This document shows positions 904 to 36,876 of a stretch of 52,107 bases of DNA, in pieces (positions within the stretch are counted from its first letter, which is position 1; each line of letters opens with the position of its first letter). The notes beneath the pieces are model-generated. The model saw only the letters and a list, made by a program, of their open reading frames with translations. It was not told the origin of the DNA and ran no database searches. Position numbers and translations under genes: made by a program. Origin of the DNA: a virus (taxonomy: Duplodnaviria; Caudoviricetes); IMG/VR virus record IMGVR_UViG_3300007983_000005, positions 1-52,107 of that record. One strand, 5' to 3'.

Positions 904-3015
904 TTAAGAATAAACACAACATGGATTACCTTTTGTATAACGAAGTACAATTTCTCCATCTTCGCATACGAATTCATCTAAACTAACAATAGCACATCCT
1001 TCATCTCCAGAACTATAAGGTTCGACTTTAAGGACTAATTCCTGTTTATCGAATTGTACAGCACAATCTTCAGAACTATAATTAACTCCTGTTAATACTG
1101 AACACGATCCTGTTGAAGTAACTTCTTCAAAAACAGGAGTTGTGGCAGTTTCAAGTTTATATTGACATTCTTCATTATCTAAATATCCTCCGATGACAAC
1201 ATCACTTCCAGGACTTAAACATGATTCAGGACTTTCAGTTTCTAATGTTGGTATTGTTCCTTTATCTAATTCCCATGCACATTCTTCGTTGTTAAAAGAT
1301 ACACCTTTAATGAAATCTATAGAACATTCAGTTCCTTCTCCTACTACTATATCTGGCATTTTACGATATGTAGCAATATAATTACATGTGACTAAATCAT
1401 ATCTTACTCCTGTAACTATTGCTTCTCCAGGAATTGCACAAAAAGGATTACCATCTTCATTAGCCATTTCTGGAGGAGTAAATTCTATATATGCACAAGA
1501 TGGATCAGCACTCAACTCAATTGGTTGGCCAGCACCACCACCAACGTCTATACCTATATTACCTTTTACTTGTGCTCTAATATTTCCATTTACACAACCT
1601 TCAATAGGATCAGGTCTGTTAACTCCTACACCTTGAATTCGGGAAAGAGTGACAATAGTTCCTGTGCAATCAGAATTTACTAAATCATTAGTAATATTTG
1701 CTATAGGTACACATCCTCCACCACAGTCACCTTCTTCAGGATTATTACATTCTCCTCCTTGAATTCTCATGTATCCATAATCATATTCTAGATTTTTGCA
1801 TCCTTCTTCTAATGTAACAGTTCTTAAATTTTTAATAAATCCTTGGAATCCTGATCCTAAAATTGGATTACTCCCATCACATAATCCTGGAATAACTTGA
1901 CATTGACCAGGCAGACACCCAGGAGATACACCAACAATTCCAGTATTAGTTAATAATCCTCCAGTCTCAGTTTCTTCTAAACTTAATCCACACCCATATT
2001 CAAGGGTTTCTACACATTCAAGACAAACTCCATCATTTCCATCATTTCCATCAATTCCTGCAGGACCTGGAGGACCTGCAGGACCTTTTGGTCCCGGATC
2101 CCCTTGTTCCCCTGGAGGACCTTCTGGTCCAATTTCACCTGGAGGACCTTCTGGTCCAATTTCACCTGGAACTCCTGGGTCTCCTTTTGGTCCTGGAGGG
2201 CCAGGTTCACAAATACATTCTGGATTGCATACTAATGCAGCAGTTAAATATTCTCCACTATCTAACACTGCATATAACATATATGAAACTCTAGTTGCCA
2301 TTCCAGAAACAGTAAAAGTATTATCATCAATTCTAGTAATTGTTAAATCACTACACCCATTTGTCGGATCTGCATTAACAAGAGGAAATGAAGATGTACA
2401 ATCAAATTCTTCAATTATTCTACACTCTGGAGATTGAAAAGTTATAGTAGGACATGCACTACAATCAACTGTTATATTAGCAGTGTATCCCATTCCCATT
2501 ACACCAACAGGATCTCCATTGCAAAATGCATCAATTTTATTATTACAACAATTTGGTGTTGATGGTTGATATAAAAATCCATATGCCATTTTAATACCAA
2601 CTTGAACTTCGCATTCATTTATTCCTGTTGGTTTAACATGTGTTAATCTTCCTGGATTATCTGGACTTAAATATAATGGATCTCCCAAATTACCTGGTAT
2701 TAGTGTAATATCAGGAGCATTTTCTCTTACTCTACCATCGCTATCTTTAGAAAAATAATCTGGTGTTAATGGGAATCTATATAACATAGGTCCATCACCT
2801 TGATGAAGATAAAAATGATGAACATCTTCAAATGACCAAATAACTCCAGCAACATCAGATTTTTCAGGAACTGCAAGTGCAGGTTTAAATACACCATCAC
2901 AGTCAAGATATACAACCATACCTATTTCTAGAGTTTCTTTTGCATCAGGTTGATAAATAATTCTAGGATCAGTATGAATGTGACCTATTGTTTTATCTCT
3001 TCTGCGACTTACCAT
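904..3015 (-). CDS. Cys-rich collagen-like fibre protein (head fibre/whisker-like)
   Basis: N-terminal cement/fibre-base-like motif (GMVVYL...[15 protein letters not shown]), ~20 Gly-X-Y triplets, five C-terminal Cys-containing repeats; AGGAG SD. Confidence 0.75.
2111..2164. repeat. 27-bp direct repeat x2 inside the collagen segment (GEIGPEGPP)
   Basis: CCTGGAGGACCTTCTGGTCCAATTTCA at 2111 and 2138. Confidence 0.95.
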
Positions 3016-3309: not shown

Positions 3310-3882
3310 ATGTCATTTTTAATTGGGCTAGCAGGACCAGCCAAAGTAGGAAAAACAACAACAGCAAAATCATTGGTAAAATCAATTAAAAATAAATATT
3401 CAAATTTAAAAGTTGAATACATAGCTTTTGCTGATATGTTATATGGAACTTGCAGTTATTTATCAAGAATACCAGTGGAAACATTAGCAGACCAATCATA
3501 TAAAGAAGTAAAATGGACTGATGAAACCGCTCCTCTTCCTTGTTTATCTGGGTGGACACCAAGAAAATTTCTTCAAATTGTAGGAACTGAATGTTTTAGA
3601 AATAATATAGATAATGAATTTTGGATTCAATGTGCAATTAAATCATCCAAAGAAAATGATATAACAATTCTTTCTGATGCTAGATTTGAAAATGAATTCA
3701 AAATATGTGATTATGTTATAGAATTATCAAGAGAAGGAATAAATTATGAAGGAAATCATGCTTCAGCATTACCCCCTCCCAAAGATTTAATAGATATGGA
3801 AATACATTTATTTCCTGAAATTGTTTTTGATATGCAAATTGAAGTCATATTAGATCGTTATAAAATAATAAAAGGAGAATAA
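3310..3882 (+). CDS. Deoxynucleoside monophosphate kinase (T4 gp1/T5 Dnk-like)
   Basis: P-loop GLAGPAKVGKTT plus PRKFLQIVGTE and ILSDARFENE family motifs. Confidence 0.9.
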   Translation: MSFLIGLAGPAKVGKTTTAKSLVKSIKNKYSNLKVEYIAFADMLYGTCSYLSRIPVETLADQSYKEVKWTDETAPLPCLSGWTPRKFLQIVGTECFRNNIDNEFWIQCAIKSSKENDITILSDARFENEFKICDYVIELSREGINYEGNHASALPPPKDLIDMEIHLFPEIVFDMQIEVILDRYKIIKGE

Positions 3883-3884
3883 CC

Positions 3885-4100
3885 ATGCCATGGGATGTAT
3901 TTAAAAATAAAGTAAAATGTGAAATATGTGGCGATATAATAATGCCAGATAGCGATAAAACATGGACTGAATGTAGTTGTGGTTCAACACAAGTAATGGG
4001 AAAAAGTTTTTTAAGAATTAAAGGTGATAACTATACAAATTTAAGTAAATTTAATTATGATGATATTCCTGAACATAAAGATTGGAATGAAACAGACTAA
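3885..4100 (+). CDS. Small Zn-binding phage protein
   Basis: KVKCEICGDII...ECSCGS pattern common in phage hypothetical proteins; AGGAG SD. Confidence 0.75.
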   Translation: MPWDVFKNKVKCEICGDIIMPDSDKTWTECSCGSTQVMGKSFLRIKGDNYTNLSKFNYDDIPEHKDWNETD

Positions 4101-4109
4101 GGAGAAAAT

Positions 4110-4751
4110 ATGTCAAGATTTGAAATACAATTTTCATCACCAGAAGAACAAACATATGATGTGGAGAATTCGCAAAGAAAAGAATTTAGATTGTTTTTAA
4201 TTGGTGAATTAACTAAAGATAATGGCACTGAATTAATTCAATCTATGTATGATATAAATGAAATAAATGAAGAATTAGGAACTGAAATTCCAATAATTTT
4301 AATTATTAACACTCCTGGTGGAGATTTACAAGTATGTCAAATGGTTTGTGATGTTATGAATGAAATAAAAACTCCAGTTTATACAAAATGTTTGGGTCAA
4401 GCATGTAGTGCAGGGATTATTATATTAATGAACGGTGAACCTGGATTTAGAACAGCATCTAAACATTCACAAATGATGAGTCATAGATTTAGTACTGCAA
4501 TTGAAGGATCTCATTCAGATCTAGAATATCATAATAAAGAAATGCAAAGAATGTATAGTAGATTAATTGATCATTATGTATTTTGTACAGGATTAACAAA
4601 AAAGAAAATTGAAGAGAGATTATTAGCAGAACATGATACATATTTAACATCACAAGAATGTGTGGAATTAAATATTATTGATGAAGTCATTAAAGGAAAA
4701 GAAAAAAATGTTAAACGAAGAACAAAATCAACTAGAAGTAGTAAAAAATAA
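4110..4751 (+). CDS. clpP: ClpP-like serine protease
   Basis: INTPGGD, GQACSAG (Ser), MMSH (His), HDTYL (Asp): catalytic triad appears intact. Confidence 0.92.
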   Translation: MSRFEIQFSSPEEQTYDVENSQRKEFRLFLIGELTKDNGTELIQSMYDINEINEELGTEIPIILIINTPGGDLQVCQMVCDVMNEIKTPVYTKCLGQACSAGIIILMNGEPGFRTASKHSQMMSHRFSTAIEGSHSDLEYHNKEMQRMYSRLIDHYVFCTGLTKKKIEERLLAEHDTYLTSQECVELNIIDEVIKGKEKNVKRRTKSTRSSKK

Positions 4752-5430
4752 AAAAAGTGATTCAATTTTATCTTTACTTAAGAATGATAAAATATTAACA
4801 TCTAATGATTGGGACGATTTAGAGTCATCTACTGGATTTATAAAAGAATGTTTTAAATCTATACCTATGTATAGACCTTTACCAGTAAAAATATTTGGGG
4901 TGTTAAATGATAAAGAATGTCCTACTCCAGAAACAAAATTTTGGCAATGCAGAAAAGAAGCCGAAGTTCATGCTGATCAGTTAATAGAAGATATCCATAA
5001 TCTTGAAATGATAAGAATTAATATAGATAGAGCTAATTATGCATTAGATAAAATGAAAAATGAATATATATCTGAAAAAAATGTTGATAGAAAAATGGAA
5101 ATTGAATTTGATTTAAGAGAAACTCAAGTCAATCTTTCAAAATTAGAATATAGAGGAATTAAACTTCAAAAGCAAATAAAATATAGAATTGAAGAAGTTC
5201 ATGAATGGAAAAAAATATCAGAAAATATTAAATCATCTCATAATATAGAAACTAATAGTTATATAAAACAGTATGTAAATAATATGAGGTTTAATCTAAT
5301 TAAAAAGAAAAATGAGTTGTCTGAAGAAAATAACAAAGAAGAATTAACTATGTTAGATTCTCAATTAAATACATTTAATACAATAATAAAACAAATTGAA
5401 TCTATTAAAACCCCGTCAGAGAAAATCTAG
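4708..5430 (+). CDS. Coiled-coil hypothetical protein (CPTPETKFWQC motif)
   Basis: Charged helical ORF; start moved to ATG 4708 (AAGGA upstream); overlaps the clpP 3' end. Confidence 0.7.
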   Translation: MLNEEQNQLEVVKNKKSDSILSLLKNDKILTSNDWDDLESSTGFIKECFKSIPMYRPLPVKIFGVLNDKECPTPETKFWQCRKEAEVHADQLIEDIHNLEMIRINIDRANYALDKMKNEYISEKNVDRKMEIEFDLRETQVNLSKLEYRGIKLQKQIKYRIEEVHEWKKISENIKSSHNIETNSYIKQYVNNMRFNLIKKKNELSEENNKEELTMLDSQLNTFNTIIKQIESIKTPSEKI

Positions 5431-7276
5431 CATTAAATGGACTAGAAACAATAATTTTAATTGAATTATTATCTATAGGTATTATTTGTTGTGCTTGAAC
5501 TTGAAAATCATTATCAATATTAAATAGGGTATATGAGAAAGAATATTTATCATTCAAACTTAAATTGTGATTCCATATATATTCGAATCCTAAGAATGTG
5601 GGACCACCATTATAAACATATGATGTTGATGTCCAATCATCAGATGATATTTCTACATTATCACCTAATCCTCCACCATCGCCAGAACCAGTACCTACAT
5701 TTTTAGTATTTGTACCGTCAAAATATTGAAATTGTTTCAAACCATCATTATACCAAAATGGTATACCATATTCAGATATATCATATTGTGTTAAATAATC
5801 ATAAATTTCATCTTGATCTGGAATTCCAAATCTAACTTCTTGTCTGTTACCAATACCAAATACTAAATTGTCTTTATTCCAAAATGATTTAAGAGGTTTA
5901 ACTGAATATAATGTATCAGGAGAACCAGATGTTCCTGATGTTCCTGTCGTTCCTGTTGTGCCAGTGGTTCCAGTAGATCCAGGTGATGATACTGATACAT
6001 CTTGAACATCAACATTATATAATTCATCAAACCCACCAACAGAATTTATTATAGCATCATTTTCAGATATAATCCAATCTCTTAATAATGTAATACCAGA
6101 ATCTATTTCAGTTTGTGTATTATATTCATCTCTTATAATTGATGTGTTGAATAAAGATACCCTTGAATCTGATCCTGATGCATATAACAATCTAGTTGTA
6201 ATACCAGAAACTAAATTTCCATTCCAATAAAATTTTTCATCTAAAATTGTATCAGTTAAAATTACTTTTCCTTTTGTTACATTTATTCCAGTAAATTTAG
6301 TAATATTAGATGAATCATTATTATCTGATGGATTTGGTTGCCCTGCATTTGAGAAATCCAAATCTTTAATTGTCAGAACTGAATCTTTATTATGATCCAT
6401 TCTAAATAATTGAATTTCTTCAGTAGAAGGAGTTACATCATCAATACTTCCAAATCTTAAACCTTCAATAAAAATACTACTTAATGTATTAGTAGTTGAA
6501 GGATCATTAAAGTTTACAAATCTATTAAAATTATTAGTTCCACCAGTAAAAGAAATTGTACTATTAATAATTCTAACTCCATTTCTTACTTTTGTAAGAT
6601 TTCCTATAGGTGCATTTTTTATCTGAAACATATCACTATATTTTGTATCCATAAATTCATATGAAATATCTTGGAACAAAATAGATATTGGATCAGTAGA
6701 ATCAATAGTAAATGCATATTTTCTATTAGAATTAGTACCTTCTGAATCTCTTAATCTAAATACTGGATTTCCTACACCCATATATCTAATTCCATTAGCA
6801 TTAATTTCAATTGGTTCATCACCGTCGAATTCAAATACCCCATAATCTGATATAGTATCTGCTGAATTTTGTCTATGGGATCCCATTATCATTAAATTTA
6901 CATTATTATACCCATTAAAAATTAATGTGTGGGCATAATCTGTAGCTTCTTTTAATGAATTATATATTTCACCTTCAACAACAAATGAGTCTGGTATTGT
7001 AGGATCTACATATATAAATCGTGATGTATATTTAAGATATGCAAATTGATTAAGATATACAAGAGCATCTTGTATGTTACTGATGCCAACATAGAAATTA
7101 TCATCAGAATCAAATGAAACATTTGATCCTATAAGACCTTTTAATAACTCTGTTAATGTAACACCATCAGGATTTGGTTCATCTCTAAAAATTAAATTCC
7201 CATCAGAATCTGAGGTAAGTGCTCTTACTATTCGACCTACTTGATAAGCTGTGGACTTAAATGGATCAATTGGCAT
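5405..7276 (-). CDS. Tailspike/fibre-like protein with probable right-handed beta-helix
   Basis: FIYVDP...YNSLKEATDYA beta-helix cap pattern, Asn/Ile-rich rungs, C-terminal WNHNL motif, N-terminal DSDGNLIFRD motif. Confidence 0.6.
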   Translation of the reverse strand: MPIDPFKSTAYQVGRIVRALTSDSDGNLIFRDEPNPDGVTLTELLKGLIGSNVSFDSDDNFYVGISNIQDALVYLNQFAYLKYTSRFIYVDPTIPDSFVVEGEIYNSLKEATDYAHTLIFNGYNNVNLMIMGSHRQNSADTISDYGVFEFDGDEPIEINANGIRYMGVGNPVFRLRDSEGTNSNRKYAFTIDSTDPISILFQDISYEFMDTKYSDMFQIKNAPIGNLTKVRNGVRIINSTISFTGGTNNFNRFVNFNDPSTTNTLSSIFIEGLRFGSIDDVTPSTEEIQLFRMDHNKDSVLTIKDLDFSNAGQPNPSDNNDSSNITKFTGINVTKGKVILTDTILDEKFYWNGNLVSGITTRLLYASGSDSRVSLFNTSIIRDEYNTQTEIDSGITLLRDWIISENDAIINSVGGFDELYNVDVQDVSVSSPGSTGTTGTTGTTGTSGTSGSPDTLYSVKPLKSFWNKDNLVFGIGNRQEVRFGIPDQDEIYDYLTQYDISEYGIPFWYNDGLKQFQYFDGTNTKNVGTGSGDGGGLGDNVEISSDDWTSTSYVYNGGPTFLGFEYIWNHNLSLNDKYSFSYTLFNIDNDFQVQAQQIIPIDNNSIKIIVSSPFNARFSLTGF

Positions 7277-8622
7277 TACGCACTCCCTTCAAATTTTAAC
7301 TTTGTTGCTATCCAGTCTACACTTCCTGTGAATTTTTTCTCAGAGCGGATAGTAAATCCAGTATTTTTCTTATTTGTATAAAACATATTTATATTTTTAT
7401 TACATGAAATTGACACGCTATAATCTATGGATGAAAATGGAGTCTCGAATTCTACTTTATATAATTCCTGATTTTCAAAATTTATAGTTCCTGATTTTCT
7501 ACCAAGTTTATCTTCTTTACTTATATCATAAATTATACAATCTATGCTTGAATTAGTTATAGGATCATTTGTCAAAGAATTTGGAAATCCAATTATTCTT
7601 CTTTCTGATGATTTATACATGATGTCAGTTGTTTCTTCAAGTGATACTACATCATTTTCGTTAACGCAATCTAATTCCATAACATCATCAGTTAGTATAT
7701 CATCAACATAAAATTGAACTAATATTCTATGATTTGGTTCAGTTTCTGAAGATTCTTTTTGCTCTTGAGTTGCACATTGACAGTTTAATCTTTCAAAATC
7801 TTCATTATAAGTTAATAAGTTTCCTGTATATGTAAGTATTGGTTGTTGTTCTATAGGTTCTCTTGAGTTATTTCCTATACTTATTTGATCTAATACTTCT
7901 CCAGTAGTTTCATTATAAAGACGGAATAATATAGGTTTTTCAGTCTTTATAGTTCTAATAGAAAGTTTAGAAATTATAGAAGTCACTTTTTGTTTATCTA
8001 AAGGTGGTAATAGAATTTCTAAATTAGGAACATTGTGCCACCTATATGAACCATCTGAAAGAGTTTTATAATCAGGGATAAAACTATTAGATATAATATA
8101 TTGATCAATAGAAAAGACTTTAGTACCTTCAGTATTAGTTGGGTATTCTCCTGAACTGTTCTTAGTAAAAATCCTAGAATTATTTGAATTATCTGCAATA
8201 TTAGGATCTCCATTTACATTAATTGTTATATTATTGCATTCTGAATTTGTTATTGAAGTCCTTCCAACCCACCAAATACCGCCCTGAACAAATCTATTCT
8301 GAGCATCAGTATATGCACTTACCAATTCATCTAAACTATATGCTCTTTTTGTTGAACTATCTTTGAAGTATAATTTACCATCATTTACATAAATTCCATT
8401 TACTCTTGTCCATAAATCTTTTAATGTTATACTTTGTAAAGGATTTCCATTAATATCAACTTGATTTGATATCCATGAATCTCTAAAATGTAAATTTCCA
8501 TCTTCATCTAAAAATAATACATTATCAACACTTTCTATTGTTGTTGAATCAGTAGTTGGTTTTCCTAAACTAATTCCTGATGCTAAAAATGGGTCAGGTT
8601 TTGTATTTCCGATTTCACTCAT
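7276..8622 (-). CDS. Virion structural protein; short paralogue of the 2015-aa protein
   Basis: Shares N-terminal, central and C-terminal motifs with 8635..14682. Confidence 0.7.
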   Translation of the reverse strand: MSEIGNTKPDPFLASGISLGKPTTDSTTIESVDNVLFLDEDGNLHFRDSWISNQVDINGNPLQSITLKDLWTRVNGIYVNDGKLYFKDSSTKRAYSLDELVSAYTDAQNRFVQGGIWWVGRTSITNSECNNITINVNGDPNIADNSNNSRIFTKNSSGEYPTNTEGTKVFSIDQYIISNSFIPDYKTLSDGSYRWHNVPNLEILLPPLDKQKVTSIISKLSIRTIKTEKPILFRLYNETTGEVLDQISIGNNSREPIEQQPILTYTGNLLTYNEDFERLNCQCATQEQKESSETEPNHRILVQFYVDDILTDDVMELDCVNENDVVSLEETTDIMYKSSERRIIGFPNSLTNDPITNSSIDCIIYDISKEDKLGRKSGTINFENQELYKVEFETPFSSIDYSVSISCNKNINMFYTNKKNTGFTIRSEKKFTGSVDWIATKLKFEGSA

Positions 8623-8634
8623 CTCATGTTCCTC

Positions 8635-11600
8635 TTACTTATCAAATATATATCCATCTAATGGAGAATTTTCACTAATATCTTTTTCTGTTACGTTAAT
8701 AATTGCATTTGCGACATAATCAACACTTCCAGAAAAATTATCAATTTCTGTAAAAATCGTAAATCCAGAATTTGTTTTATTTTCCCACCATACTTCTACA
8801 TTATCACTTGGAGTAAGAGATATTTGATAATTTCCGTCAGAAATGTCATCAGAAAATGGTGTATCAAATTCAACAGTTGCTTCAGAAGTATTATCGAATA
8901 ATACAGATCCATGTCTTTCGACTATTATATCAGATTCAGCTTGATATATATTTACACTTAAAGACGAAAGAACATTTTCACTATTTCCTGCGTAAATTTC
9001 TCCGTCTTTAGGATATTGGGTATGCAAGCGGCGGCCCATATAATTCTTTAAAAATTCATCTTCTTCTGGTATATCTCTAAGATCCCATACGAATACTCTA
9101 GGTGTAGTTTCTCCACTATGATAACCATTAGAAATTCCTGTAATACTTATATTACTATCTACTTTATGTCCTCCAACTATAATTGAAGCGTCAGGTTCAC
9201 CAAAACACATTTGACCTATATGCCATTTATTCATTTCTGACCATTCCGTTACGTTTCGAATCTTTTTAAGAGTAGGGTTGTATATAGAATCATATACTGG
9301 CACGTCACCTCCAAGACCTACACCATCCATATAACGCTTCCAAGAAATATTTTCATAATCTATTTCTAATTTAGATGGACTTATTCCTAATCCGTTAGAT
9401 TGTACCCATTTTTTCGGAGCTTTATATCTTTGGTCATTTTGATATTCTTGAATAAATGATGTTCCCCATTCAGTGTAGGATTCACTTGTTGCTGACATAG
9501 GGAAAGTTATAGATACATTAGAACTAGCAGAAATACAATCAGTCTCTCCTGATATTGAAATTGTTGCATTATTTAACGCAGTATATTCATGAGTTTGATT
9601 CGTTGTATTTCCATTTAATAATATTCTTCCATTTAACAATGACCCATAATTATTAGAAGAAATATTTATAGTTGATGTTTCAAAATATGTAGAACCATAA
9701 TTAGTATCACTACTAACGTCTCTGCGGTTTATATCAGAACTTAAATTAAAAGTACCCACGTCTTCATATAAGCCCTGCGTCCAAATTGGAACGCCCCAGC
9801 GTTGGTTCCCGATAGGGGTAAAATCAGCCACCAATTCAATAAAACTAGAAATATTAGGACCACAATCTGAAAGACTTGATCTCCATTCTTGTTCTTTAGT
9901 AGTGACACCAATCATAATTCCATCTTCAAAAGTAATATCAAATTTAATATCACCGACAATACCATCCATTATTAATGGTGTCGTATTTTCTGAACTTTGT
10001 AATACTTTAAATGTGTGTGATATTGCAGTACTTGTTTCTCCATTTTTTATATCTTGATAAATTGATTCCATTGACTGGAATTTCATAATTCCCACACCTG
10101 CAAACATATAAGTTTTATCAGATTCAGTTGATGAATCATATATCATAGTTTCTTCAAATCTATAACTCATTTCTACTGATAAGTCTTGGAAAACTTGAAC
10201 ATTAGTTACTTCAAATTCTTTATTGTTTGATGTTATAGAAATTATATCATCAGGATAAACTGGTGTTGTATCTGTTCTAATGGTAATATCAACTTCTTTT
10301 ATTTGTATAGTTCCTGTTGTTGTATTTTCTGTATCTGTTACTTTAGCATTTGCTCTGAACGTACCGCCAGTTATAACATTTTTATTTAATGAAATAATTG
10401 TTGTTCCTAGATTATGATTTACTGTAACATTTGTTTCATCTTGAGGAGCTATTGGTGCAGGATTAGTAGGTGCTACAGTTATAATATTAAAATTAGGATA
10501 GTTATCAGAATTTGAATATTGAAGAGTTTCTTGATCATCTCTAAACCTAGGATCACTGAATAAGAGAGAAACATCAAATGTCTCCCAAATTGGAGATTCC
10601 CAACATGGACCTCCACTTAATATTTCGACGTAATCTGTTCCTGCTAATGATATATTATTTTTTTCGAATGTTTTAACATCATCTGGACATAAAAATTCAT
10701 CAGGATCTATAGAATCAGTTGATGCACTTATAGAATTGACATTAACTTCAAATGAACCTATAGAATCGTGTATACCACCCCAGAAAATTGATCTATTTTC
10801 ATCTCCGACTCCACAATGCCAATAAACAGATTCTAACATATTTTGTCTACGAATCCATGTTTGATCATTTAATTCATAAACTAAATCTAAAACTCTATCC
10901 TTTTCTAGTTTAACATTAGTTAAGGTATTTGATACTATTGGAGTATATCCAGTAGAGTATTTATCAAAAATCCTCTTTATAACCCCATCAGATCCCCCCA
11001 TATTGTTATATTCTGTTCTTCCACCTGTTGATATGCCAGAATCATTATCTCCAGTATAAACCATTCCGTGGCATCTTAATGGGTATCTTAAATTCGGATC
11101 GACTGTTACATATTTGATAGTAACTTCTCTAGATTCAACTGATACATTATCAGTTGATAAATTTGAAAGGCTATCATCACAATTACAATTACTTTCTCCT
11201 AAATAAATCAACCTAGCATTAACTGACCCAGCATCTTTAGGATATGATATTTCTAAGCCAGGAGATATTGTTATAACACTACCTGATTCAGAAACACAGA
11301 AATCATATATTTTATCTGATGGGCGACTTTCTATATATGTTTCTAAGTCAATTAAAGAATCTTCTTGAACATCAAAAGCGTATTCAGAAGATTGCCCATT
11401 AATAGATATAGCAGTATTAGAAGCCCATCTTCCAGTTATACCATCAGTTCTACAATTACAGATAGAATTTTGACCAATATAACATAATTCAAAGTTTACT
11501 TGTCCTCCCCATAATCCATCACCAACAAATTTTATATCTGAATCAGGATTATTTACACAGAAGTTATCTGTAGTTCCTAATGTAGTTAAATCTCCAGGTT

Positions 11601-14600
11601 CATTAAATATAGTATCTACATATAACCCATCTGAAAATATTTTAACTCCTCCAGGATTACCAGAAGAAATACAATCTGCATCTTCATAAATTAACTTAAC
11701 TACAACAGAACCATAATCTTCAGAGTTATTAGAATAATTATCATCTTTATATCGCAATCTTAATTCTGAATCAGGTTCAGTAACACAGAAACTGTATTCA
11801 TCAGAAGAAGTAAATGCAATTCCATTTAAATTATCATTTATTATAACTTCTACTTGTTGTAATGATTGATTACATGGACACGATTGAATACCTTGCCATG
11901 ATATACCAAAATTTACATTACCATTATTATTTGAAAGATCGTCATCGCAAGGATCATCAAATTTAACATTAACTGTTACTGGACTTGATACTGATGCATT
12001 GACACAAAATTCAAAATATGGTTTACTCAATCCACCAAAGAAACTATTAAATGATGTTAAATCCCCAAAGCATTGATCCCATGATGTAGGAACTCCTAAT
12101 GCATCATAAAAAGTTGGATTTGCAGCAGAACCATTTACAGTAACAGTAACATTACATGCATAATAATCAATTGTACTTCCACCACTTAAAACTTGATTTA
12201 CAACAGGAGAACCGCCGGCATAAGTGAATCTAAATAATCCACATGTTTCCATCACTATGTCTGTTCCATTAGTGTCAGAACTATCTACAGACGTTCCACC
12301 TGCATAACATGGATTATTTTCATCAGGATCTTCTACACTAAATTCTATTCCTTCTATTCTATATGTACCAGCATATGGTAATGTGGCAATAGTTCCAGTT
12401 TCATCCCATCCTGGAATTGATATAGTTTCTTCAATTACTCTTTCATCTCCTGAATTATTATTTGAGAGTGTACTATTTAAAAGCGTAGCTCTATAATATC
12501 CACATGAAGGAACTGAAATGCTTGTTCCTGTTGAATCTCCCATATCAACAGAAACTGATTCATATACTATAGATTGACATGAATCACCTGAAATATTAGC
12601 AGATGCTGAAGAGTGGAATCCCCCGTTAATATATTCTAATCTATATTTTCCACATTTATCTACTGATATATCAATTCCATTAGGTGAAGTACCTTCGATA
12701 TTTATCATATCCTTTATGATTTCTTGTGGGGCATCTATAATTAAAGAATTATCATTAGATGTTGATAATGTATTTTCGCTCGCAACTAAATATGTAGTGT
12801 TTATTTTTTCGAATATATCTACGACTTCATCATATTTAATCCCATTTATATTGACATATGATTCTTCTGCTCTAGAAATTAGATTAGATCTACCTGTAGT
12901 AGTTCCCCCATATACAAACCCTTCAACATTAGAAAGTGCATATCGAATATAATTTGATGTTTCACCTGACAAATCATTTACAAATTCTAATATAACTTGT
13001 TCATTATCTTCAATCAAATCAAAATCTTTAATTAAAGATTCAATTTCAAATTTATCTTGTCTAGAATAAGATTCAACTGAAAGATTTCCTGCGTGATCTC
13101 CTCTAGGAATATTAAGTTGAAGATCAGATACAGTTTGAAAATATGATAGAGAAGGGTCAGATGCGCCAATAAAAACTTCTAATGAATCTAATGGAGTAGC
13201 TTTACTCCATTCAGAAAATTCTTTAGGATTATCAACATTAAATTCAGAATATCCTCCAATAACACCACATGTAGATCTACCATTTCCCCCTTGAACATGG
13301 TAACATCTTGGAGAATTTAATGTAGGTAATATATTTTTTAAGAAACCATTTCCTGACCATAGTTCAGCATTTGAGAGTACTCTTGTTTTCATAGGTATAT
13401 CATTATATTCATTTGTAGTTATACCACCAGCAATGATACCATTATCTCTTGTACCATTCGCTCCTCCAAATGCTCTATCAATATTGAGAATTCCTATTTC
13501 ATGGACATTATCTTCTAAATCAGTGCTTCTCCAATTTATAGGATCAATAGTTCCTAGAAAATCTCTTTGAGAACTGTCATAATCTGGTTTAAGAGTAATT
13601 TGACTTTCAATTAAATGTGAAATTTCTGAATCATTTTCATCTTCTAATTCATAATTAATTTGATTGGATTTAGTTTGACATGAATCATTTTCAAAATTAC
13701 CTGATGTTCCAAAATTTTGAATATTGTCTGTACTTATTAAACCTCCAACCCAATGAGATATTAAATTATCAGACCAAAATATATTATTATTATCATTTTT
13801 TGTTTGAGATTCATCTAATATAGTTGTACTAGTGCCATCTTTTATTCTAGCACCTAAAACATTTTTTATTGTATAATAATGACCAAAATTATTTTCTGGA
13901 TCAAAAGTAAATTTTAAATTTAATAGAATATTTGCAATTTTTAGTTTTTCAAATGGTTTAGTTGAAATAGTTAAATCTGGTATTGTAAACCATCCACCAT
14001 TTAAAAAATCAGAATTAGTTAAAAATCCATTATATAAAGATGGATCAGATAGATATTTTTTATACTCATCATTTACATATTTATCAGGAGACCAAAATTC
14101 AAACATTTTTGCTTCAATATTACCATTTCCTGAAAGACCTGGCGTTGTAGATAAAGTGACATTAGTATTTCTACTGTTATCATTAAATCCATCTGTTGTT
14201 ATTCTACTAGCCCACCATACATCACCAAATTTAGATAATTTATGAAAAACTAAAAAGGTATCTATATCTTTAACAAAATTCTGTAAAGTAATTTCCTCAA
14301 CTTCAATATCTTTAAATGATAATTGTTGTTTAAATTCATCCCATAAAATGTTATTATCAGCATATTCCCATAATTGACGAAGTAATATATCATCTATATA
14401 TTCAGTATCACCATCAATTAAAAATGATTGGGAAGACCATTCATCTCTAAATTTCATTTCAGTACCAGAATCGGTTGGAATTACAGGTACTCCAGTTGTT
14501 CCTGAAGTACCCATAGTCCCGCCTGACATTGTAGGTATATTAGAAATATTAGTATATGTTGGTACAAATACTCTACAATCATTTTCTTTATGTATACTGA

Positions 14601-14682
14601 ATTTTAATCCAGTATATGCTTGGTAAAAATTACCCCAATCAAAAATTTGGTCATTTAATGACATCTGATTTATTTTCTCCAA
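8635..14682 (-). CDS. Giant appendage/receptor-binding protein: Kelch-like propeller plus nested LecA-like domains (start may be ATG 14664)
   Basis: Six GG-containing Kelch-like blades, four split jelly-roll repeats and the shared C-terminal module. Confidence 0.7.
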   Translation of the reverse strand: MEKINQMSLNDQIFDWGNFYQAYTGLKFSIHKENDCRVFVPTYTNISNIPTMSGGTMGTSGTTGVPVIPTDSGTEMKFRDEWSSQSFLIDGDTEYIDDILLRQLWEYADNNILWDEFKQQLSFKDIEVEEITLQNFVKDIDTFLVFHKLSKFGDVWWASRITTDGFNDNSRNTNVTLSTTPGLSGNGNIEAKMFEFWSPDKYVNDEYKKYLSDPSLYNGFLTNSDFLNGGWFTIPDLTISTKPFEKLKIANILLNLKFTFDPENNFGHYYTIKNVLGARIKDGTSTTILDESQTKNDNNNIFWSDNLISHWVGGLISTDNIQNFGTSGNFENDSCQTKSNQINYELEDENDSEISHLIESQITLKPDYDSSQRDFLGTIDPINWRSTDLEDNVHEIGILNIDRAFGGANGTRDNGIIAGGITTNEYNDIPMKTRVLSNAELWSGNGFLKNILPTLNSPRCYHVQGGNGRSTCGVIGGYSEFNVDNPKEFSEWSKATPLDSLEVFIGASDPSLSYFQTVSDLQLNIPRGDHAGNLSVESYSRQDKFEIESLIKDFDLIEDNEQVILEFVNDLSGETSNYIRYALSNVEGFVYGGTTTGRSNLISRAEESYVNINGIKYDEVVDIFEKINTTYLVASENTLSTSNDNSLIIDAPQEIIKDMINIEGTSPNGIDISVDKCGKYRLEYINGGFHSSASANISGDSCQSIVYESVSVDMGDSTGTSISVPSCGYYRATLLNSTLSNNNSGDERVIEETISIPGWDETGTIATLPYAGTYRIEGIEFSVEDPDENNPCYAGGTSVDSSDTNGTDIVMETCGLFRFTYAGGSPVVNQVLSGGSTIDYYACNVTVTVNGSAANPTFYDALGVPTSWDQCFGDLTSFNSFFGGLSKPYFEFCVNASVSSPVTVNVKFDDPCDDDLSNNNGNVNFGISWQGIQSCPCNQSLQQVEVIINDNLNGIAFTSSDEYSFCVTEPDSELRLRYKDDNYSNNSEDYGSVVVKLIYEDADCISSGNPGGVKIFSDGLYVDTIFNEPGDLTTLGTTDNFCVNNPDSDIKFVGDGLWGGQVNFELCYIGQNSICNCRTDGITGRWASNTAISINGQSSEYAFDVQEDSLIDLETYIESRPSDKIYDFCVSESGSVITISPGLEISYPKDAGSVNARLIYLGESNCNCDDSLSNLSTDNVSVESREVTIKYVTVDPNLRYPLRCHGMVYTGDNDSGISTGGRTEYNNMGGSDGVIKRIFDKYSTGYTPIVSNTLTNVKLEKDRVLDLVYELNDQTWIRRQNMLESVYWHCGVGDENRSIFWGGIHDSIGSFEVNVNSISASTDSIDPDEFLCPDDVKTFEKNNISLAGTDYVEILSGGPCWESPIWETFDVSLLFSDPRFRDDQETLQYSNSDNYPNFNIITVAPTNPAPIAPQDETNVTVNHNLGTTIISLNKNVITGGTFRANAKVTDTENTTTGTIQIKEVDITIRTDTTPVYPDDIISITSNNKEFEVTNVQVFQDLSVEMSYRFEETMIYDSSTESDKTYMFAGVGIMKFQSMESIYQDIKNGETSTAISHTFKVLQSSENTTPLIMDGIVGDIKFDITFEDGIMIGVTTKEQEWRSSLSDCGPNISSFIELVADFTPIGNQRWGVPIWTQGLYEDVGTFNLSSDINRRDVSSDTNYGSTYFETSTINISSNNYGSLLNGRILLNGNTTNQTHEYTALNNATISISGETDCISASSNVSITFPMSATSESYTEWGTSFIQEYQNDQRYKAPKKWVQSNGLGISPSKLEIDYENISWKRYMDGVGLGGDVPVYDSIYNPTLKKIRNVTEWSEMNKWHIGQMCFGEPDASIIVGGHKVDSNISITGISNGYHSGETTPRVFVWDLRDIPEEDEFLKNYMGRRLHTQYPKDGEIYAGNSENVLSSLSVNIYQAESDIIVERHGSVLFDNTSEATVEFDTPFSDDISDGNYQISLTPSDNVEVWWENKTNSGFTIFTEIDNFSGSVDYVANAIINVTEKDISENSPLDGYIFDK

Positions 14683-15252
14683 TTATTTACTTTTTGGAGT
14701 TGCACTCTCCGGGGTATCTTCGCTCTTGAGAAGTTTCTCAATTGCAGTTTTACCCTTTTCTTCAATATATTTCTTAACACTTTCAGATTCGCCTGCTTTT
14801 TCAACAGCAACTCTAAGGGTTTCAACTAATTTATCTTCTGAGCTTGGAGCTTCAGATTTCTTAGTTGCCCACTCCTCAGTCCAGTTGATTGATTTTACTA
14901 AATATCCTTCAGCAATAGCTTCAACTGCATCAGGAATATCAAATCCCAATTTCTTTTCTATTTTCTTGATACCAAGTTTTGCAGCAAGTGTAACAACAGC
15001 AGTACTAATACCAAGTAAAATTGCTGCAACTTTCCAAATTAAAGAAACCCATGGGTTTGTTTTTTCAGATACTTCTTTATCTGAATCTTCAGATGTTACT
15101 GTAGGTTCTACTGTGGAAGATGATGTTGATGATACAACATTCTTTTCAACACCAGAAACTGTGACAACAGGTTCATCTTCTGCTACAATGTAAGAAACTG
15201 GTGCAACAGATATACCAAAAACTAACAAGATTGATAATAATAGATTACGCAT
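14683..15252 (-). CDS. Membrane protein, holin-like (LL-H type C-terminal region) with N-terminal signal-like segment
   Basis: ATG 15252 with AAGGAG SD; hydrophobic MRNLLLSILLVFGISVA, second TM WVSLIWKVAAILLGISTAVVTLAA, then helical ...TEEWA...EDKL. Confidence 0.5.
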   Translation of the reverse strand: MRNLLLSILLVFGISVAPVSYIVAEDEPVVTVSGVEKNVVSSTSSSTVEPTVTSEDSDKEVSEKTNPWVSLIWKVAAILLGISTAVVTLAAKLGIKKIEKKLGFDIPDAVEAIAEGYLVKSINWTEEWATKKSEAPSSEDKLVETLRVAVEKAGESESVKKYIEEKGKTAIEKLLKSEDTPESATPKSK

Positions 15253-15295
15253 ATTTTTCTCCTTTATGAAATCCAATTTACTCTATAATTATATA

Positions 15296-28197: not shown

Positions 28198-31100
28198 TTA
28201 ATCTACTCCATCTGCTTCAATGATTATATCCCCAAGAATAGGAAATTCATATCTATTAAGTTGTAAGTTAAAGGAGAATACCCATTCTCTTTCTCCTGTA
28301 TTAGAATCTGTCACATCTAATAATGGTTCAACTATAGTTAAAAGAGATTCATCTTTTGCTAGAAGTTCTAAAATCTTTCTTCTTTTAACTTCAGCAACAG
28401 TTTCATTAATATCTGTAACGGCATCAATATCGTAATCAGTTGCAGATAATTTATCATTTTCATCTTTATGCCATGCAACTTCAACATAATCTATATTTGA
28501 TACATTATTAGTTATATCAGTAACTAGATCAGAATGATGCAAATTTTCTCCTAATTCCCTATTAGATTTTTCAAAATAATTTCTTATTACTCTTTCAATT
28601 CCATTCTTTACTGTTGATATATTTCCTAAGGTTGTTGGTTTAAATCTAACTCTAACATCTATAGGAATATTAGTTGCAGAAAATACTTCATGTTCAACAG
28701 TGGCCATTGATTTAAATTTCTTATCTAATGTTTCTATTATATATTCTTTTTGTTTTTTAGTTATCTCATTTCCAAATCTTGGAAGAACAACTAAGAATAT
28801 ATAATTAAAAAAGAATCTATCATCATCTGTTGTAATAAATCCACCTTTAATTGCATCTTTATAAGACATAGCTTCTGCTTTAAGAATTATATCATTAAAT
28901 GCTGATCGGGAGAATGATGCATAATCATTTAAAGAAACAATTCTATCTTGTCTCAAATTAGCAGATGATGCAGATTTTCTCAATTCTTCTGTTGTTTCAG
29001 GATTTCCTCCACCAACAGCAGAATTACTTTGAGAAATAGTTAATATATCAGAATCTATTTCTGTTCCTTCAGAATCATATATTATAGAAGAAGATGTTCT
29101 AGAATCAGAAGAAAAGAATGTTTCATTTTTAAGCCCTAAAAGTTGAATAAATTGTTGTTCAAATTGAACAGTTATATTATCGTCACCAAGTATTTCTTTT
29201 GATAATACAACAGAATCTGCCAAACTATTTGGAGGAATATTACCATCTCTTCCAACTGTTCTTAAACCAAAAATATACATTTCATTTCCATAAGGATCTA
29301 CACCAAAATCTATTCCATTTCCAAACTTTATTTCAATCCTTCTAGTATCTTCAACTCTAGCAAAAAATACTTTAGCTCCAGGTTCAATATCAGTACTTGA
29401 AGTTAAATTAGATGCATTTATCCATTCTTCCCAATTATTAGAACTATTTTTAACAAAAATTCTTATATCATTATATGATATATTTTCGGCTGCTACTTGG
29501 AATTTCAATTCTTTATCATTTGTTCTATCAGCAGAAAATTTAATACCCAATTGATTATTTGCAGAATCTATAGTACCATTTCTATTTATGAAAGAGAAAC
29601 GAATATCACCTTGTTTCAAACTATCAATAGAAAATGTTTCGTTTATATTGTTATATCTAATTCCAGGAATTGTTCCTGCACTAGTAACTTGACCAGAAAA
29701 ATTAATAGTTCCATGTTTTTGGAATTCGTATATTGGGGAAAAATCTGCAAACCAATCGATTATTATATTGCCATCAGTACTTTCAACATTTATAGTGAAT
29801 CCAGTAGTAGTTTTATTAGTAAACCATACATTAACATTTTTATTTGCAACCATATGTAAACCATATTCAGTATTTTCAAATTCTCCGTCAAATGTTATAT
29901 CCTTTGTAGTCTGATCTCCACTTAAAGTAACAGTTCCTCTTCTTCGGGTAGAAGATGTTTCTTCGTCTATAACATTTTGATCTGTTGAAAACACAAAAGT
30001 AGAATATGAAACACTTCCAGTAAATGATTTTTCAACTTTCACTTTAAAACCATTTGCTGTTTGGTCTTCATACCATACATTAACATTTTCATTGGGGGTT
30101 AAGAAAATTGTATATGGTGCATCAACACCATCTATCTGAGGAATTGGTTCATCGAATACAACTTCTATTTCTCTAGAATCTTTAGGATCAATTCTAGTTG
30201 CAACCCAATTGATATCACCTTCAAAAGCTGCATTAGGTTCTATATTTACAGTGAATCCATCTTCACTCTTATTGCTAAACCAAACTTGTATATTTTCGGA
30301 AGGAGTAAGAGATACTGAATATTCAACTGAATCTGTACCAGTTGTAGATGAGGTAAATGGTTGATCAAATGCAACAAATGTATTTGTTATTCCTTCTGAA
30401 AAACTAACAACTCCTGATTTTTGTTGAGTTGTAGTTACATCAACTTCAGGTACAATTTGGAAATTACCAAATCTTTGTCCTGTATCTCTTAAAATTGTAG
30501 GAGTCCCACTTTCAGGATCTACATATCCAGGATATATTTTAGCTATAGTAATTTCATCTACAGTTGGTTCTAAAGATGTTACATTTAATTTAGCATCATA
30601 ATTAAAATCAGGAGCATCAGGAGTAACAATCGCCATATTTACATTATATTCTGTTACATTGGCATCCCAACTATTTAAATCGAATACCTGAGAACTTATT
30701 CTTCCATTTCTGAAAGTATAAACTACCCCATTAACTAAAACTTGCCATGGGGGAGAATTTCCATCTTTGTTTATATCTAAATGAATTTGTTTAACCCCAA
30801 ACTCCGTTGATTCTAGTTTATCATATGTAAACTCAGTAGAACCAACATTACGCATTCCTAATATTCCTTTATAGAATTTACCTTTGGCATCATTTGATAC
30901 TTCTCTTAATGTCCAAAAATTACCATCTTCGTCTTCAGGAACTAATCTAATTGCATTTATTACATCATCTTTTCTTTCTTGGAGAATATTTCCATCATCC
31001 AATATTTCCAATGTTGGTCTAGATTGTTCTTTATCATATGTGAATAAAACATAATATGTAGTATTTGCTTTTATTCTAAGGGTTGTATCCTTCATTGTTA

Positions 31101-31827
31101 TATTTCTATTAAATGGTTGACCAACTGAACTTGCGTTACTTGGATTAAATAATGGGACATTATCTACATCATAACCTTTATAATTATTTCTATTTAATCT
31201 ATCCAAAACTGATAATGGTTCAGAATCAGATAAATTAAGTACTATATTTGTAGGATCGAAAGCAGGACTTGATGTTGTACCTTCTGTTTCCCAAAAATCT
31301 CTTGATGCAGTGTATGGAAATTCAAATCCAGAATAACTAAAATCATTTTGTTGAATAGGTCTTGTACCAAACCCTTTGATCATATATACCATATTATTTA
31401 CATTCGTGAAAGTGAATTCATCGCCGGCAGGTGTAGTTATATTTGATGGAAATGAAGAATACGATGGGATTTCAAAATATGTATTTTCTTTTCCTAGACA
31501 ATATTCCGAATCAAGGCTACCTACAACATCAAGTTGTGCTGATTGATATCCTCTTGGATCATAATTTAAGAGACGAGCAATACGATTTAAATTTTTATAT
31601 CTTTTGGCAGATGGTAAAAATGGTTCATTTGCTACAGAATTAATATAATACCCAAATAGAGATCCCAAATATGAATATAACCCTACCAATGTATTAATAT
31701 TAGATGCTGTAAAATCAACATCTTTATATGTTCCGGTTTCTCTTAGATATTGTATCAATTCAGATCGAACTGCATCAAAATCTATTGTAGAATAATCAAT
31801 ATTAATTGCTTTGTTATCTTTTGCCAT
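28198..31827 (-). CDS. gp6: Baseplate wedge subunit, T4 gp6-like, enlarged
   Basis: DFDAVRSELIQYL, YKDVDFTASN, ANEPFLPSA, IKFGNG, GGGNPETTEELR, QDRIVSLNDY motifs; follows gp25. Confidence 0.9.
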   Translation of the reverse strand: MAKDNKAINIDYSTIDFDAVRSELIQYLRETGTYKDVDFTASNINTLVGLYSYLGSLFGYYINSVANEPFLPSAKRYKNLNRIARLLNYDPRGYQSAQLDVVGSLDSEYCLGKENTYFEIPSYSSFPSNITTPAGDEFTFTNVNNMVYMIKGFGTRPIQQNDFSYSGFEFPYTASRDFWETEGTTSSPAFDPTNIVLNLSDSEPLSVLDRLNRNNYKGYDVDNVPLFNPSNASSVGQPFNRNITMKDTTLRIKANTTYYVLFTYDKEQSRPTLEILDDGNILQERKDDVINAIRLVPEDEDGNFWTLREVSNDAKGKFYKGILGMRNVGSTEFTYDKLESTEFGVKQIHLDINKDGNSPPWQVLVNGVVYTFRNGRISSQVFDLNSWDANVTEYNVNMAIVTPDAPDFNYDAKLNVTSLEPTVDEITIAKIYPGYVDPESGTPTILRDTGQRFGNFQIVPEVDVTTTQQKSGVVSFSEGITNTFVAFDQPFTSSTTGTDSVEYSVSLTPSENIQVWFSNKSEDGFTVNIEPNAAFEGDINWVATRIDPKDSREIEVVFDEPIPQIDGVDAPYTIFLTPNENVNVWYEDQTANGFKVKVEKSFTGSVSYSTFVFSTDQNVIDEETSSTRRRGTVTLSGDQTTKDITFDGEFENTEYGLHMVANKNVNVWFTNKTTTGFTINVESTDGNIIIDWFADFSPIYEFQKHGTINFSGQVTSAGTIPGIRYNNINETFSIDSLKQGDIRFSFINRNGTIDSANNQLGIKFSADRTNDKELKFQVAAENISYNDIRIFVKNSSNNWEEWINASNLTSSTDIEPGAKVFFARVEDTRRIEIKFGNGIDFGVDPYGNEMYIFGLRTVGRDGNIPPNSLADSVVLSKEILGDDNITVQFEQQFIQLLGLKNETFFSSDSRTSSSIIYDSEGTEIDSDILTISQSNSAVGGGNPETTEELRKSASSANLRQDRIVSLNDYASFSRSAFNDIILKAEAMSYKDAIKGGFITTDDDRFFFNYIFLVVLPRFGNEITKKQKEYIIETLDKKFKSMATVEHEVFSATNIPIDVRVRFKPTTLGNISTVKNGIERVIRNYFEKSNRELGENLHHSDLVTDITNNVSNIDYVEVAWHKDENDKLSATDYDIDAVTDINETVAEVKRRKILELLAKDESLLTIVEPLLDVTDSNTGEREWVFSFNLQLNRYEFPILGDIIIEADGVD

Positions 31828-35729: not shown

Positions 35730-36866
35730 TTACGCTGCAAATTTTTTAGAATTAGAAATTTCTTTAAAACTATCTAAAAGATTAGTATCAAATAACTTCT
35801 GTAACAATATAGGCTTATCTATAACATTAATTCTAGATAACATTCCAACCAAACTATCTTTTGGTATAAAATCTAAACTAAAATATTTAAATATCCAATC
35901 AATATCAGATAATCCATCTCTATATTCTTTTTCGATCCATTCAACAATAATATCAACAGAAGCTTCAAATATATCATTTTTAACAATAATTTTTCCATCG
36001 TATATTGTACTAATTGCATCTTTAATTCTTGTTTTATTTCTATCGAAGTTTTGAATTTCTTTAATAGTTAAATATGTAGTATCTTTAAATCTTTCGTCCC
36101 ACCATTCATTTAGGAAATCTGTACCTAAATAAGATCCAATTATGATATTACCAAATTTTCTAATCCATTTATCATCTTTATTATCAACAATTTCCATTAC
36201 ATTAATTAAACTTCTTCTTGATGGTTTAATTTGAAATGGTAATTTAAATTTTTCAATATTAATCCATTCAGGATTTTTATCTATAACAGAAAGAGTTGTC
36301 GAAAGATTTTTATTTTCTGCATATCTAATCCACTCTTTGTTTGTTGGCTCCAAAATTACATGTCCACATCTATCTCTAAGAGCTTCATCTTGTTCAAATG
36401 CATCATTTACTACATACTTACCATTACTAGGATTACATGCTGCAACAACAACATCTTTAGATCCAATAGAATGAGTATGAATTTTGCCTTCATTTAAAAA
36501 TGGAAGCATTGCAGCCATAACAAATTTATTACCTCTATTAAATTCATCTAGAAAATAAATTGTAGGTTTATCACTATCAGTTTTTAACCATTCAGGTTTA
36601 CTCCAAATCATTTCATATTTTCCAGGATATACTTCTATTTTTGTTGGCATACCAATTAAATCAACAATATCTTGAGTTGCTAGATGTAAAACAACTACAT
36701 TATAACCTAAAGTTTCTCCAATTTCATGCATTACTGTAGTTTTACCAACAGCCTTTACGCCCCAAAAACATACAGGAAGTCTACTCTCAGTAATAAAAGA
36801 GAATAAATTTTTCATATCATCAATACTTATTGATAACACATTTGAATTGTTTGATATATCAGTCAT
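35730..36866 (-). CDS. MoxR-type AAA+ ATPase
   Basis: Walker A GVKAVGKTT, DLIGMP, Walker B YFLDEFNR, sensor AACNP, Arg finger ALRDR. Start moved to ATG 36866 (GGAG SD). Confidence 0.9.
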   Translation of the reverse strand: MTDISNNSNVLSISIDDMKNLFSFITESRLPVCFWGVKAVGKTTVMHEIGETLGYNVVVLHLATQDIVDLIGMPTKIEVYPGKYEMIWSKPEWLKTDSDKPTIYFLDEFNRGNKFVMAAMLPFLNEGKIHTHSIGSKDVVVAACNPSNGKYVVNDAFEQDEALRDRCGHVILEPTNKEWIRYAENKNLSTTLSVIDKNPEWINIEKFKLPFQIKPSRRSLINVMEIVDNKDDKWIRKFGNIIIGSYLGTDFLNEWWDERFKDTTYLTIKEIQNFDRNKTRIKDAISTIYDGKIIVKNDIFEASVDIIVEWIEKEYRDGLSDIDWIFKYFSLDFIPKDSLVGMLSRINVIDKPILLQKLFDTNLLDSFKEISNSKKFAA

Positions 36867-36876
36867 TGTTTCTCCA

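Follow-up and report, generated by a model that had tools for sequence, protein, structure and literature searches.

The 52,107-base virus record IMGVR_UViG_3300007983_000005, which is called the window here over its whole length, carries on the minus strand an open reading frame (ORF) of 2015 amino acids (aa), in which four copies of one short half-repeat (A1 to A4) are followed by four copies of another (B1 to B4). This order raises the question of how eight half-domains can make up folded domains, and what such an array may do in a phage. The first-pass annotation, made from the letters alone, had read the array as four LecA/PA-IL-like domains inserted one inside the other. All eight of the half-repeats that it quoted were found in the order given, at residues 654-1168 of the ORF, and the AAAA-BBBB arrangement is confirmed. 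The A halves begin at residues 660, 710, 754 and 797, and the central Cys-bearing strands of the B halves begin at residues 890, 963, 1039 and 1126. When the likeness between halves was scored against 500 shuffles, five of the six A-A pairs showed scores reached by 0/500 shuffles (z 5.6-11.3), and the A3-A4 pair was weak (z 2.0-2.4). The likeness among the B halves was weaker, as compared with the A halves: the scores were reached by 0/500 shuffles for B2-B3 and B3-B4, 1-4/500 for B1-B4 and B2-B4, 17-26/500 for B1-B3, and 64/500 for B1-B2. None of the A-B pairs was significant (z at most 1.2, 500 shuffles), and the A halves bear no relation to the B halves. Profiles built from each kind of half, whose seeds included the window's own halves, recovered four A and four B halves at 37.7-53.3 bits in the six frames of the window, where the next best scores outside the array were 5.7 bits (A profile) and 6.9 bits (B profile). 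A residual likeness was visible even in the DNA (A1 versus A4, 72% over 46 nucleotides; B2 versus B3, 80% over 35 nucleotides).

To see how the halves pair, we read the register from an AlphaFold model made with a 26-row alignment, which had a mean predicted local distance difference test score (pLDDT) of 84.7 (82.3-84.7 over five models) and a predicted template modelling score (pTM) of 0.49. In the model, each A half supplies three strands, and the linkers are of low confidence. The register was taken from the ranges of the model aligned in two fold searches, both of which used the same model, each range consisting of a first and a last residue only. In the wide search, nested ranges were found in 50 of the 50 matches listed and parallel ranges in none; the matches were single jelly-roll chains with 80-115 residues aligned, and their ranges fell into four intervals of about model residues 8-524 (A1+B4, 5 rows), 55-435 (A2+B3, 9 rows), 89-366 (A3+B2, 31 rows) and 134-303 (A4+B1, 5 rows), with rows 15 and 46 starting more than 15 residues from the interval edge. 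The second search likewise gave only nested ranges in all 50 matches listed (A1+B4, 4; A2+B3, 9; A3+B2, 35; A4+B1, 2; counted by eye). With the whole 548-residue model as a query, Foldseek returned no real match from the PDB and viral libraries (query-normalised template modelling score (TM) at most 0.17), and a LecA chain was absent among the matches listed.

Relatives of the protein provided a second line of evidence. We searched protein collections of 5.8 billion and 1.84 billion entries, together with viral and metagenome contigs, and obtained 8 full-length proteins (the window's included), 13 N-terminal proteins and 5 C-terminal proteins. A first viral scan with the array segment alone as the query gave no relative, and none was found in GTDB genomes or in annotated phages. 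The array has four layers in the window protein, P0003, P0005, P0006 and L002, three in P0004 and P0007, and two in L004, and the number of A halves equals that of B halves in all eight fused proteins. Of the 1, 2, 3 or 5 nesting levels that the first-pass annotation suggested looking for in homologues, the lower three were thus found (the single layer in the split form described below), and no five-layer protein was found. We found that P0004 lacks both A2 and B3, halves that lie about 0.8 kb apart. Its halves score best to A1, A3 and A4 and to B1, B2 and B4, the innermost A being almost as near to A1 as to A4; the middle pair consists of an A3-type and a B2-type half. The joint absence of A2 and B3, together with this middle pair, fits nesting and contradicts parallel pairing. 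Either a single gain of layer 2 or its loss in P0004 would fit, an approximately unbiased test of the four-layer proteins as one clade giving a p value of 0.385.

The cysteines follow the same register. In the window protein, 20 of the 31 Cys residues fall within residues 677-1168, this quarter of the protein. The Cys residues of the eight fused proteins were counted visually, without a script, on the printed alignment and the profile hits. An A half was scored for the presence or absence of Cys just before the third strand, and a B half for whether two Cys or fewer follow its last strand. Scored in this way, the states agreed in 28/28 nested pairs versus 22/28 pairs in parallel order. A2 and B3 are jointly without their Cys in the sisters L002 and P0006, the case of P0006 being less clean because its B3 carries an extra Cys a few residues earlier. 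The pattern suggests that one disulfide may bridge each A-B pair and another may lie within B.

Several points weigh against this reading of the register. The single-sequence AlphaFold prediction of the array failed (pLDDT, 33.9), and all of the structural evidence comes from one predicted model with a shallow alignment. As pTM is 0.49, the relative placing of the domains is not fixed, and the rigid stalk of the first-pass annotation is not supported by the model. The six discordant parallel pairs in the Cys tally are confined to the window, P0003 and P0005, which form one clade. Some halves of P0006 and P0007 fell short of 8 bits, so that their count relies on visual inspection of the alignment, and the layer labels of P0007 and L004 are uncertain, since most of their inner halves have the outermost layer as their best match. 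It could also be that the halves do not nest, and instead form separate small A and B domains, pair in parallel, or pair between the subunits of an oligomer. The pTM of only 0.49 leaves room for this, a single-chain model being compatible with a swap of equivalent halves between subunits, and domain swapping has been described for Si3, an insertion in the cyanobacterial RNA polymerase (PMC11515920). We consider such arrangements very improbable, given 0 parallel ranges in 100 matches listed, the matched loss of A2 and B3 and the agreement of the Cys states; moreover, a three-strand A half would be unlikely to fold alone. The pairing A4-B1, A3-B2, A2-B3 and A1-B4 predicted by the first-pass annotation is therefore borne out by the fold ranges, by P0004 and by the Cys residues. 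A homologous domain interrupts a domain over two or more levels, as in recursive self-insertion of the Si3 type, and the nested architecture of four domains is, in our judgement, very likely. The architecture is real and well supported; its function we infer.

The relatives also revealed a form that the first-pass annotation had missed and that is new, namely a gene boundary placed exactly between A and B. Two adjacent genes encode the protein in L005 and L011: the first stops just after a single A half, and the product of the second opens with a leader of about 100 residues, Gly-rich and in part hydrophobic, which precedes a single B half. Among the 13 N-terminal proteins, of which 2 have DNA context and the other 11 are protein records only, 12 stop 5-9 residues past the A half and one continues for 70 further residues; the C-terminal proteins have one B half each (5/5). 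Halves were scored in five split proteins and proved to be of the A1 type (2/2) and the B4 type (3/3), which supports A1-B4 as the outermost pair. As the split falls exactly between A and B, the one-layer domain would form from two chains, that is, be assembled from two gene products. Fused and split forms lie on two sides of one branch (support 100/100; 76/69 in the C-terminal tree) in an unrooted tree. We dropped the explanation that the L005 split is a sequencing frameshift, because in L011 the same position shows a clean stop followed by a purine-rich spacer and a start; the uniform termination of 12 of the 13 A-ending proteins, 5-9 residues after the A half, also counters it.

Two further observations concern the split form. 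The leader of the second gene (L005 11901-12200, L011 9353-9660 and the N-termini of P0009-P0011), about 100 residues long, has 7-21% Gly, little Lys/Arg and a Kyte-Doolittle 19-residue peak of 1.25-2.0, and it did not score as an A half. It occupies the place of the inner layers of the fused forms and would thus hang from the tip of the arm, where it could be a membrane-contacting or assembly peptide. P0014 and P0015, which are split first-gene products, are without the A-half Cys at their C-termini, and their partners would be predicted to be without the second Cys after the last strand of B.

We next consider what kind of domain is nested. In the predicted model, the domains agree with a jelly-roll beta-sandwich of about 120 residues, and ranks 1-3 of 48,161 in the fold search were taken by LecA-family chains: PA-IL (3zyb; Z 8.4, root-mean-square deviation (rmsd) 4.6, 102 residues aligned), EclA (6ygq; Z 8.0, rmsd 3.4, 100 aligned) and PllA (5odu; Z 8.0, rmsd 3.4, 102 aligned). 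EclA and PllA aligned over model residues 149-303 (A4+B1), and PA-IL over A3+B2. Three separate LecA-family entries heading the list would appear to be more than one chance row, and PA-IL scored Z 8.8 in the second search. On the model, about 100 residues of LecA-family chains superpose on each array domain tested, with Z 8.0-8.8, and a comparable Asp...[Asp/Asn]-Asn loop precedes the final strand in some layers. In contrast to LecA, which is a free tetrameric lectin, the array domains are Cys-rich and discontinuous, and four of them sit one inside another within a phage protein of 2015 aa; their identity to the family is 10-13%, and their loop spacing is x4-x7 rather than x6. The stretch that holds His50 and Gln53 in LecA is probably the insert site in the three outer domains. 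The jelly-roll resemblance to LecA claimed by the first-pass annotation therefore held for the model, whose closest solved matches are LecA-family chains, without a PA-IL sequence match.

Other results tell against the kinship. The next chains after the LecA family, a lambda tail-tip chain and carbohydrate-binding modules, reached Z 7.2, a margin of about 1 Z, and in the second search a Klebsiella phage baseplate chain tied EclA at 8.0. Values of Z 7-8 are typical of models without a clear match. The PF07828 (PA-IL) profile had no match in the window's record, and the array drew a blank in Pfam, PHROG and PDB sequence searches. The Atlas search with the array gave only a 0.85 cluster, 17% of whose members carry PA-IL. 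We nevertheless regard a real kinship to the LecA family as reasonably probable. By the tests run, the array domains are members of neither the Si3 nor the LecA family, combining a Si3-like architecture with what is likely a LecA-like chemistry.

LecA binds via Asp100, Thr104 and Asn107, plus the galactose contacts His50 and Gln53 (PMC9321714), and the N-terminal, LecA-like domain of EclA binds calcium through Asp114, Asp121 and Asn122, with no sugar ligand found for it (PMC11875179). We scored the corresponding motif, Asp-x(4-7)-[Asp/Asn]-Asn, by eye. In the window, it occurs with spacing x7 in B1 and x4 in B2, departing from the x6 of LecA and EclA, and B3 and B4 have none. Across the family, it was present in 4/8 fused tips, 4/7 B2-type halves, 0/5 B3 halves, 2/8 outermost B halves and 4/5 single B halves of the split form. 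The first-pass annotation had the calcium/galactose loop best preserved at the tip; it is indeed present in B1, but it is also present in B2 and is missing from four of the eight fused tips. Its spread over tip, B2-type and single B halves suggests that the loop is not specific to the tip but looks like an ancestral feature that some layers have retained. The absent tip loops, the deviating spacing and the ligand-free EclA weigh against sugar binding, and we put the chance that the array binds glycans at slightly less than even.

These data lead us to favour, as a likely account on the predicted model, four nested LecA-type jelly rolls that would form an out-and-back arm of the baseplate, which may bind host-surface glycans via calcium-type loops. 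Each jelly roll would be inserted after the third strand of the next outer one. The chain would lay down three strands per domain on its way outward from A1 to A4, complete the tip, and then complete domains 3, 2 and 1 while returning from B1 to B4. Each domain may be stapled, once outside the cell, by a disulfide between the Cys before the third strand of A and the second Cys after the last strand of B, with a possible second disulfide within B. Host glycans would be bound via the loops of the two distal domains, and the loop-less domains (A2-B3 and A1-B4 in the window) would serve as spacers, so that the number of layers would set the reach. A new tip layer could arise by a single whole-domain insertion. 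Gain or loss of a middle layer would need two breakpoints about 0.8 kb apart, most simply by an out-of-register double crossover swapping the inner cassette. A more speculative extension, which we put forward only as an unlikely but attractive possibility, is that this jumbo-phage family tunes the reach of a calcium-dependent glycan-binding arm like a telescope, from a two-gene start with an inter-chain disulfide and a Gly-rich tip leader, through fusion, to cassette exchange.

The nested stack may instead be real and purely structural, a spacer, strut or protein-binding arm in which calcium, if bound, stiffens the joints and no sugar is bound. Absence of the loop from half of the fused tips and from B3 in 5/5 cases would agree with this, as would the lack of a PA-IL profile match, the nearly equal scores of tail-tip and baseplate jelly rolls, and the homologous EclA domain without a known ligand (PMC11875179). 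On the other hand, the loop is kept in 4/5 single-layer B halves and 4/7 B2-type halves, three different LecA-family chains top the fold search, and the array is the most variable part of the otherwise conserved N-terminal two-thirds of the protein, as expected of a host-facing module; we hold a purely structural role to be rather unlikely. The same final structure could also have had another history, in which no domain was inserted into another: one gene would have accumulated A halves at its end, the following gene B halves at its start, and the nested register would have been set when the two genes fused. Genes divided precisely between A and B are common (13 A-ending and 5 B-starting proteins), and fused and split forms each occupy one side of a branch supported at 100/100. 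All of these 18 proteins, however, are single-half, none having two or more, the counts always match in the eight fused forms, and a rootless tree gives no split-first order, which makes this history improbable as compared with growth by insertion.

Self-nesting as a principle is already known from two precedents. The Si3 region of the cyanobacterial RNA polymerase beta' subunit contains recursively inserted homologous HABAS domains (PMC11515920, PMC13114784), and resembles the array in that domains sit inside domains of their own family over several levels. It differs in fold and function and is branched and partly domain-swapped, whereas the array is a single chain with one to four layers and a split form; the array does not belong to the Si3/HABAS family, its host being a phage tail-cluster protein and its domains matching jelly rolls. 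Of the D4/D5 domains of Geovibrio thiophilus flagellin (PDB 9au6), one is a copy of the other and sits within one of its loops (PMC11532411), which likewise gives an out-and-back surface arm with self-insertion. That flagellin was the first Foldseek row for the whole array model (TM 0.09, no real match); it has one self-insertion, versus three in the array, and belongs to a flagellar filament with a FliD-related fold. Contractile tail sheath proteins have 'Russian doll' nested domains I-IV (PMC6088184), and are thus another case of nested domain insertion in a phage-tail-type machine; that source does not present the sheath domains as duplicates of each other, and they are not an adhesion arm. 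The first-pass annotation knew of no described phage receptor-binding arm built by recursive self-insertion. Self-insertion itself has precedents, but in the open literature searched, neither a lectin-fold arm of this nested kind in a phage protein nor a series of nesting depths that includes a split form came up. The same searches of the open literature did not turn up a LecA-like fold in a phage baseplate protein, and the main text of a catalogue of extracellular contractile injection system (eCIS) receptor domains (PMC12923769) mentions neither PA-IL, LecA nor Kelch.

Self-nested domains are known from few cases, and this family supplies intermediates, namely a split one-layer form and fused two-, three- and four-layer forms. 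With these intermediates and the matched gain or loss of distant halves, both the growth path and the folding problem, in which three half-domains await partners up to 440 residues away, become directly testable. If true, the arm would be a new design for phage adhesion, with a LecA-like fold in a baseplate protein, and the telescope idea, if true, would give a naturally occurring ladder of recursive self-insertion, with rungs 1-2-3-4, within a single protein family. For protein design, it suggests a natural route to a longer arm with both chain ends kept at its base.

The coordinates of the half-repeats and of the regions around them are given in Table 1.

Table 1. Features of the array-bearing ORF, in positions of the window.
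Feature	Position	Strand	Remarks
Host ORF	8635-14682	minus	2015 aa, or 2009 aa counted from first ATG
Conserved Gly-Gly blade-like repeats before array	12793..13530	minus	Atlas lead 0.87 to Kelch clusters; no Pfam match; tentative
A1 half, aa 654-690	12613..12723	minus	three strands; outermost domain with B4 (profile, model, fold ranges, split relatives)
A2 half, aa 704-737	12472..12573	minus	pairs with B3 (fold ranges; jointly absent in P0004)
A3 half, aa 748-782	12337..12441	minus	pairs with B2; no Cys before third strand
A4 half, aa 795-831	12190..12300	minus	contiguous with B1, forming the tip domain
B1 half, aa 837-937	11872..12174	minus	Asp-x7-Asn-Asn-x-Gly loop; terminal Cys-x-Cys
B2 half, aa 944-1004	11671..11853	minus	Asp-x4-Asn-Asn loop; one terminal Cys
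B3 half, aa 1013-1077	11452..11646	minus	short loop without Ca-type motif; terminal Cys-x-Cys
B4 half, aa 1090-1168	11179..11415	minus	terminal Cys-x-Cys
Blade-like repeats resuming after array	10753..11100	minus	weak profile likeness to upstream blade, E 0.15; tentative
Blade-like repeat near C-terminus, aa 1814-1868	9079..9243	minus	motif by eye, conserved in relatives' alignment
C-terminal region	8638..8997	minus	contains ~78-aa shared domain (BLASTP, alignment)

The array is flanked by conserved Gly-Gly blade-like repeats reminiscent of Kelch-type beta-propellers, to which they have the Atlas lead shown in the table. Unlike Kelch propellers, these blades are broken by long inserts and have no Pfam match; they also had no PDB profile match, and profiles of single blades did not detect the other blades, including that at aa 1814-1868. 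It is likely but unproven that the array is inserted in a Kelch-type propeller, which would constitute a fifth nesting level missed by the first-pass annotation. Large lineage-specific, partly Cys-rich inserts were also seen before the last blade-like repeat, at about aa 1560-1700 in P0007 and in the second genes of L005 and L011; they would represent a second variable arm, which may also be built out-and-back.

The genomic setting points to the virion. The window's record, estimated to be 25% complete, holds a contractile-tail module with tail tube, gp53-like, hub/lysozyme-like, gp25-like and gp6-like wedge genes, after which come very large unannotated ORFs, the 2015-aa ORF being one of them. 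The latter had no match in Pfam or PHROG. The order of the tail and baseplate genes is kept in 5/5 related viral loci (contigs of 39 to 332 kb), including the place of the 2015-aa gene after the gp25-like and gp6-like wedge genes, with the exception of a small gene just upstream that is missing from three of the five loci. This gene (14683-15276, minus strand) encodes a Cys-free product with predicted membrane-like stretches, and is present in the window, L002 and L004 and absent from L003, L005 and L011. About 78 C-terminal residues are common to the 2015-aa protein, the gp6-like wedge (28198-31827) and a 448-aa neighbour (7276-8622), both also on the minus strand (BLASTP E 1e-7 to 1e-12), and this domain showed a weak match to Gp53-like_C (1/12 members, E 0.029). 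Sharing it with the gp6-like wedge would tie the 2015-aa protein to the baseplate. The gene thus lies in a baseplate/fibre cluster, as expected of a baseplate receptor-binding protein, and the protein is most probably a part of the virion baseplate of a large myophage.

Some neighbouring genes deserve mention. The N-terminal part of the host-protein family, as represented by L005 9947-11899, shares 26% identity over 207 aa with the 448-aa neighbour (E 4e-5), which suggests a paralogy that may be useful for rooting. Two Cys-rich ORFs on the minus strand, at 1-861 and 904-3015 (7.3% and 5.4% Cys, the second with a collagen repeat), are kept in several related loci and are possibly disulfide-rich fibres. 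Genes for a dNMP kinase, a ClpP-type protease and an unassigned 250-aa ORF (3310-5430, plus strand) run opposite to the tail genes; the related loci have kept them, except that ClpP was not seen in L011. Finally, a MoxR-type AAA ATPase gene stands beside a VWA-like/metallopeptidase gene at 35730-38583 (minus strand), inside the tail module.

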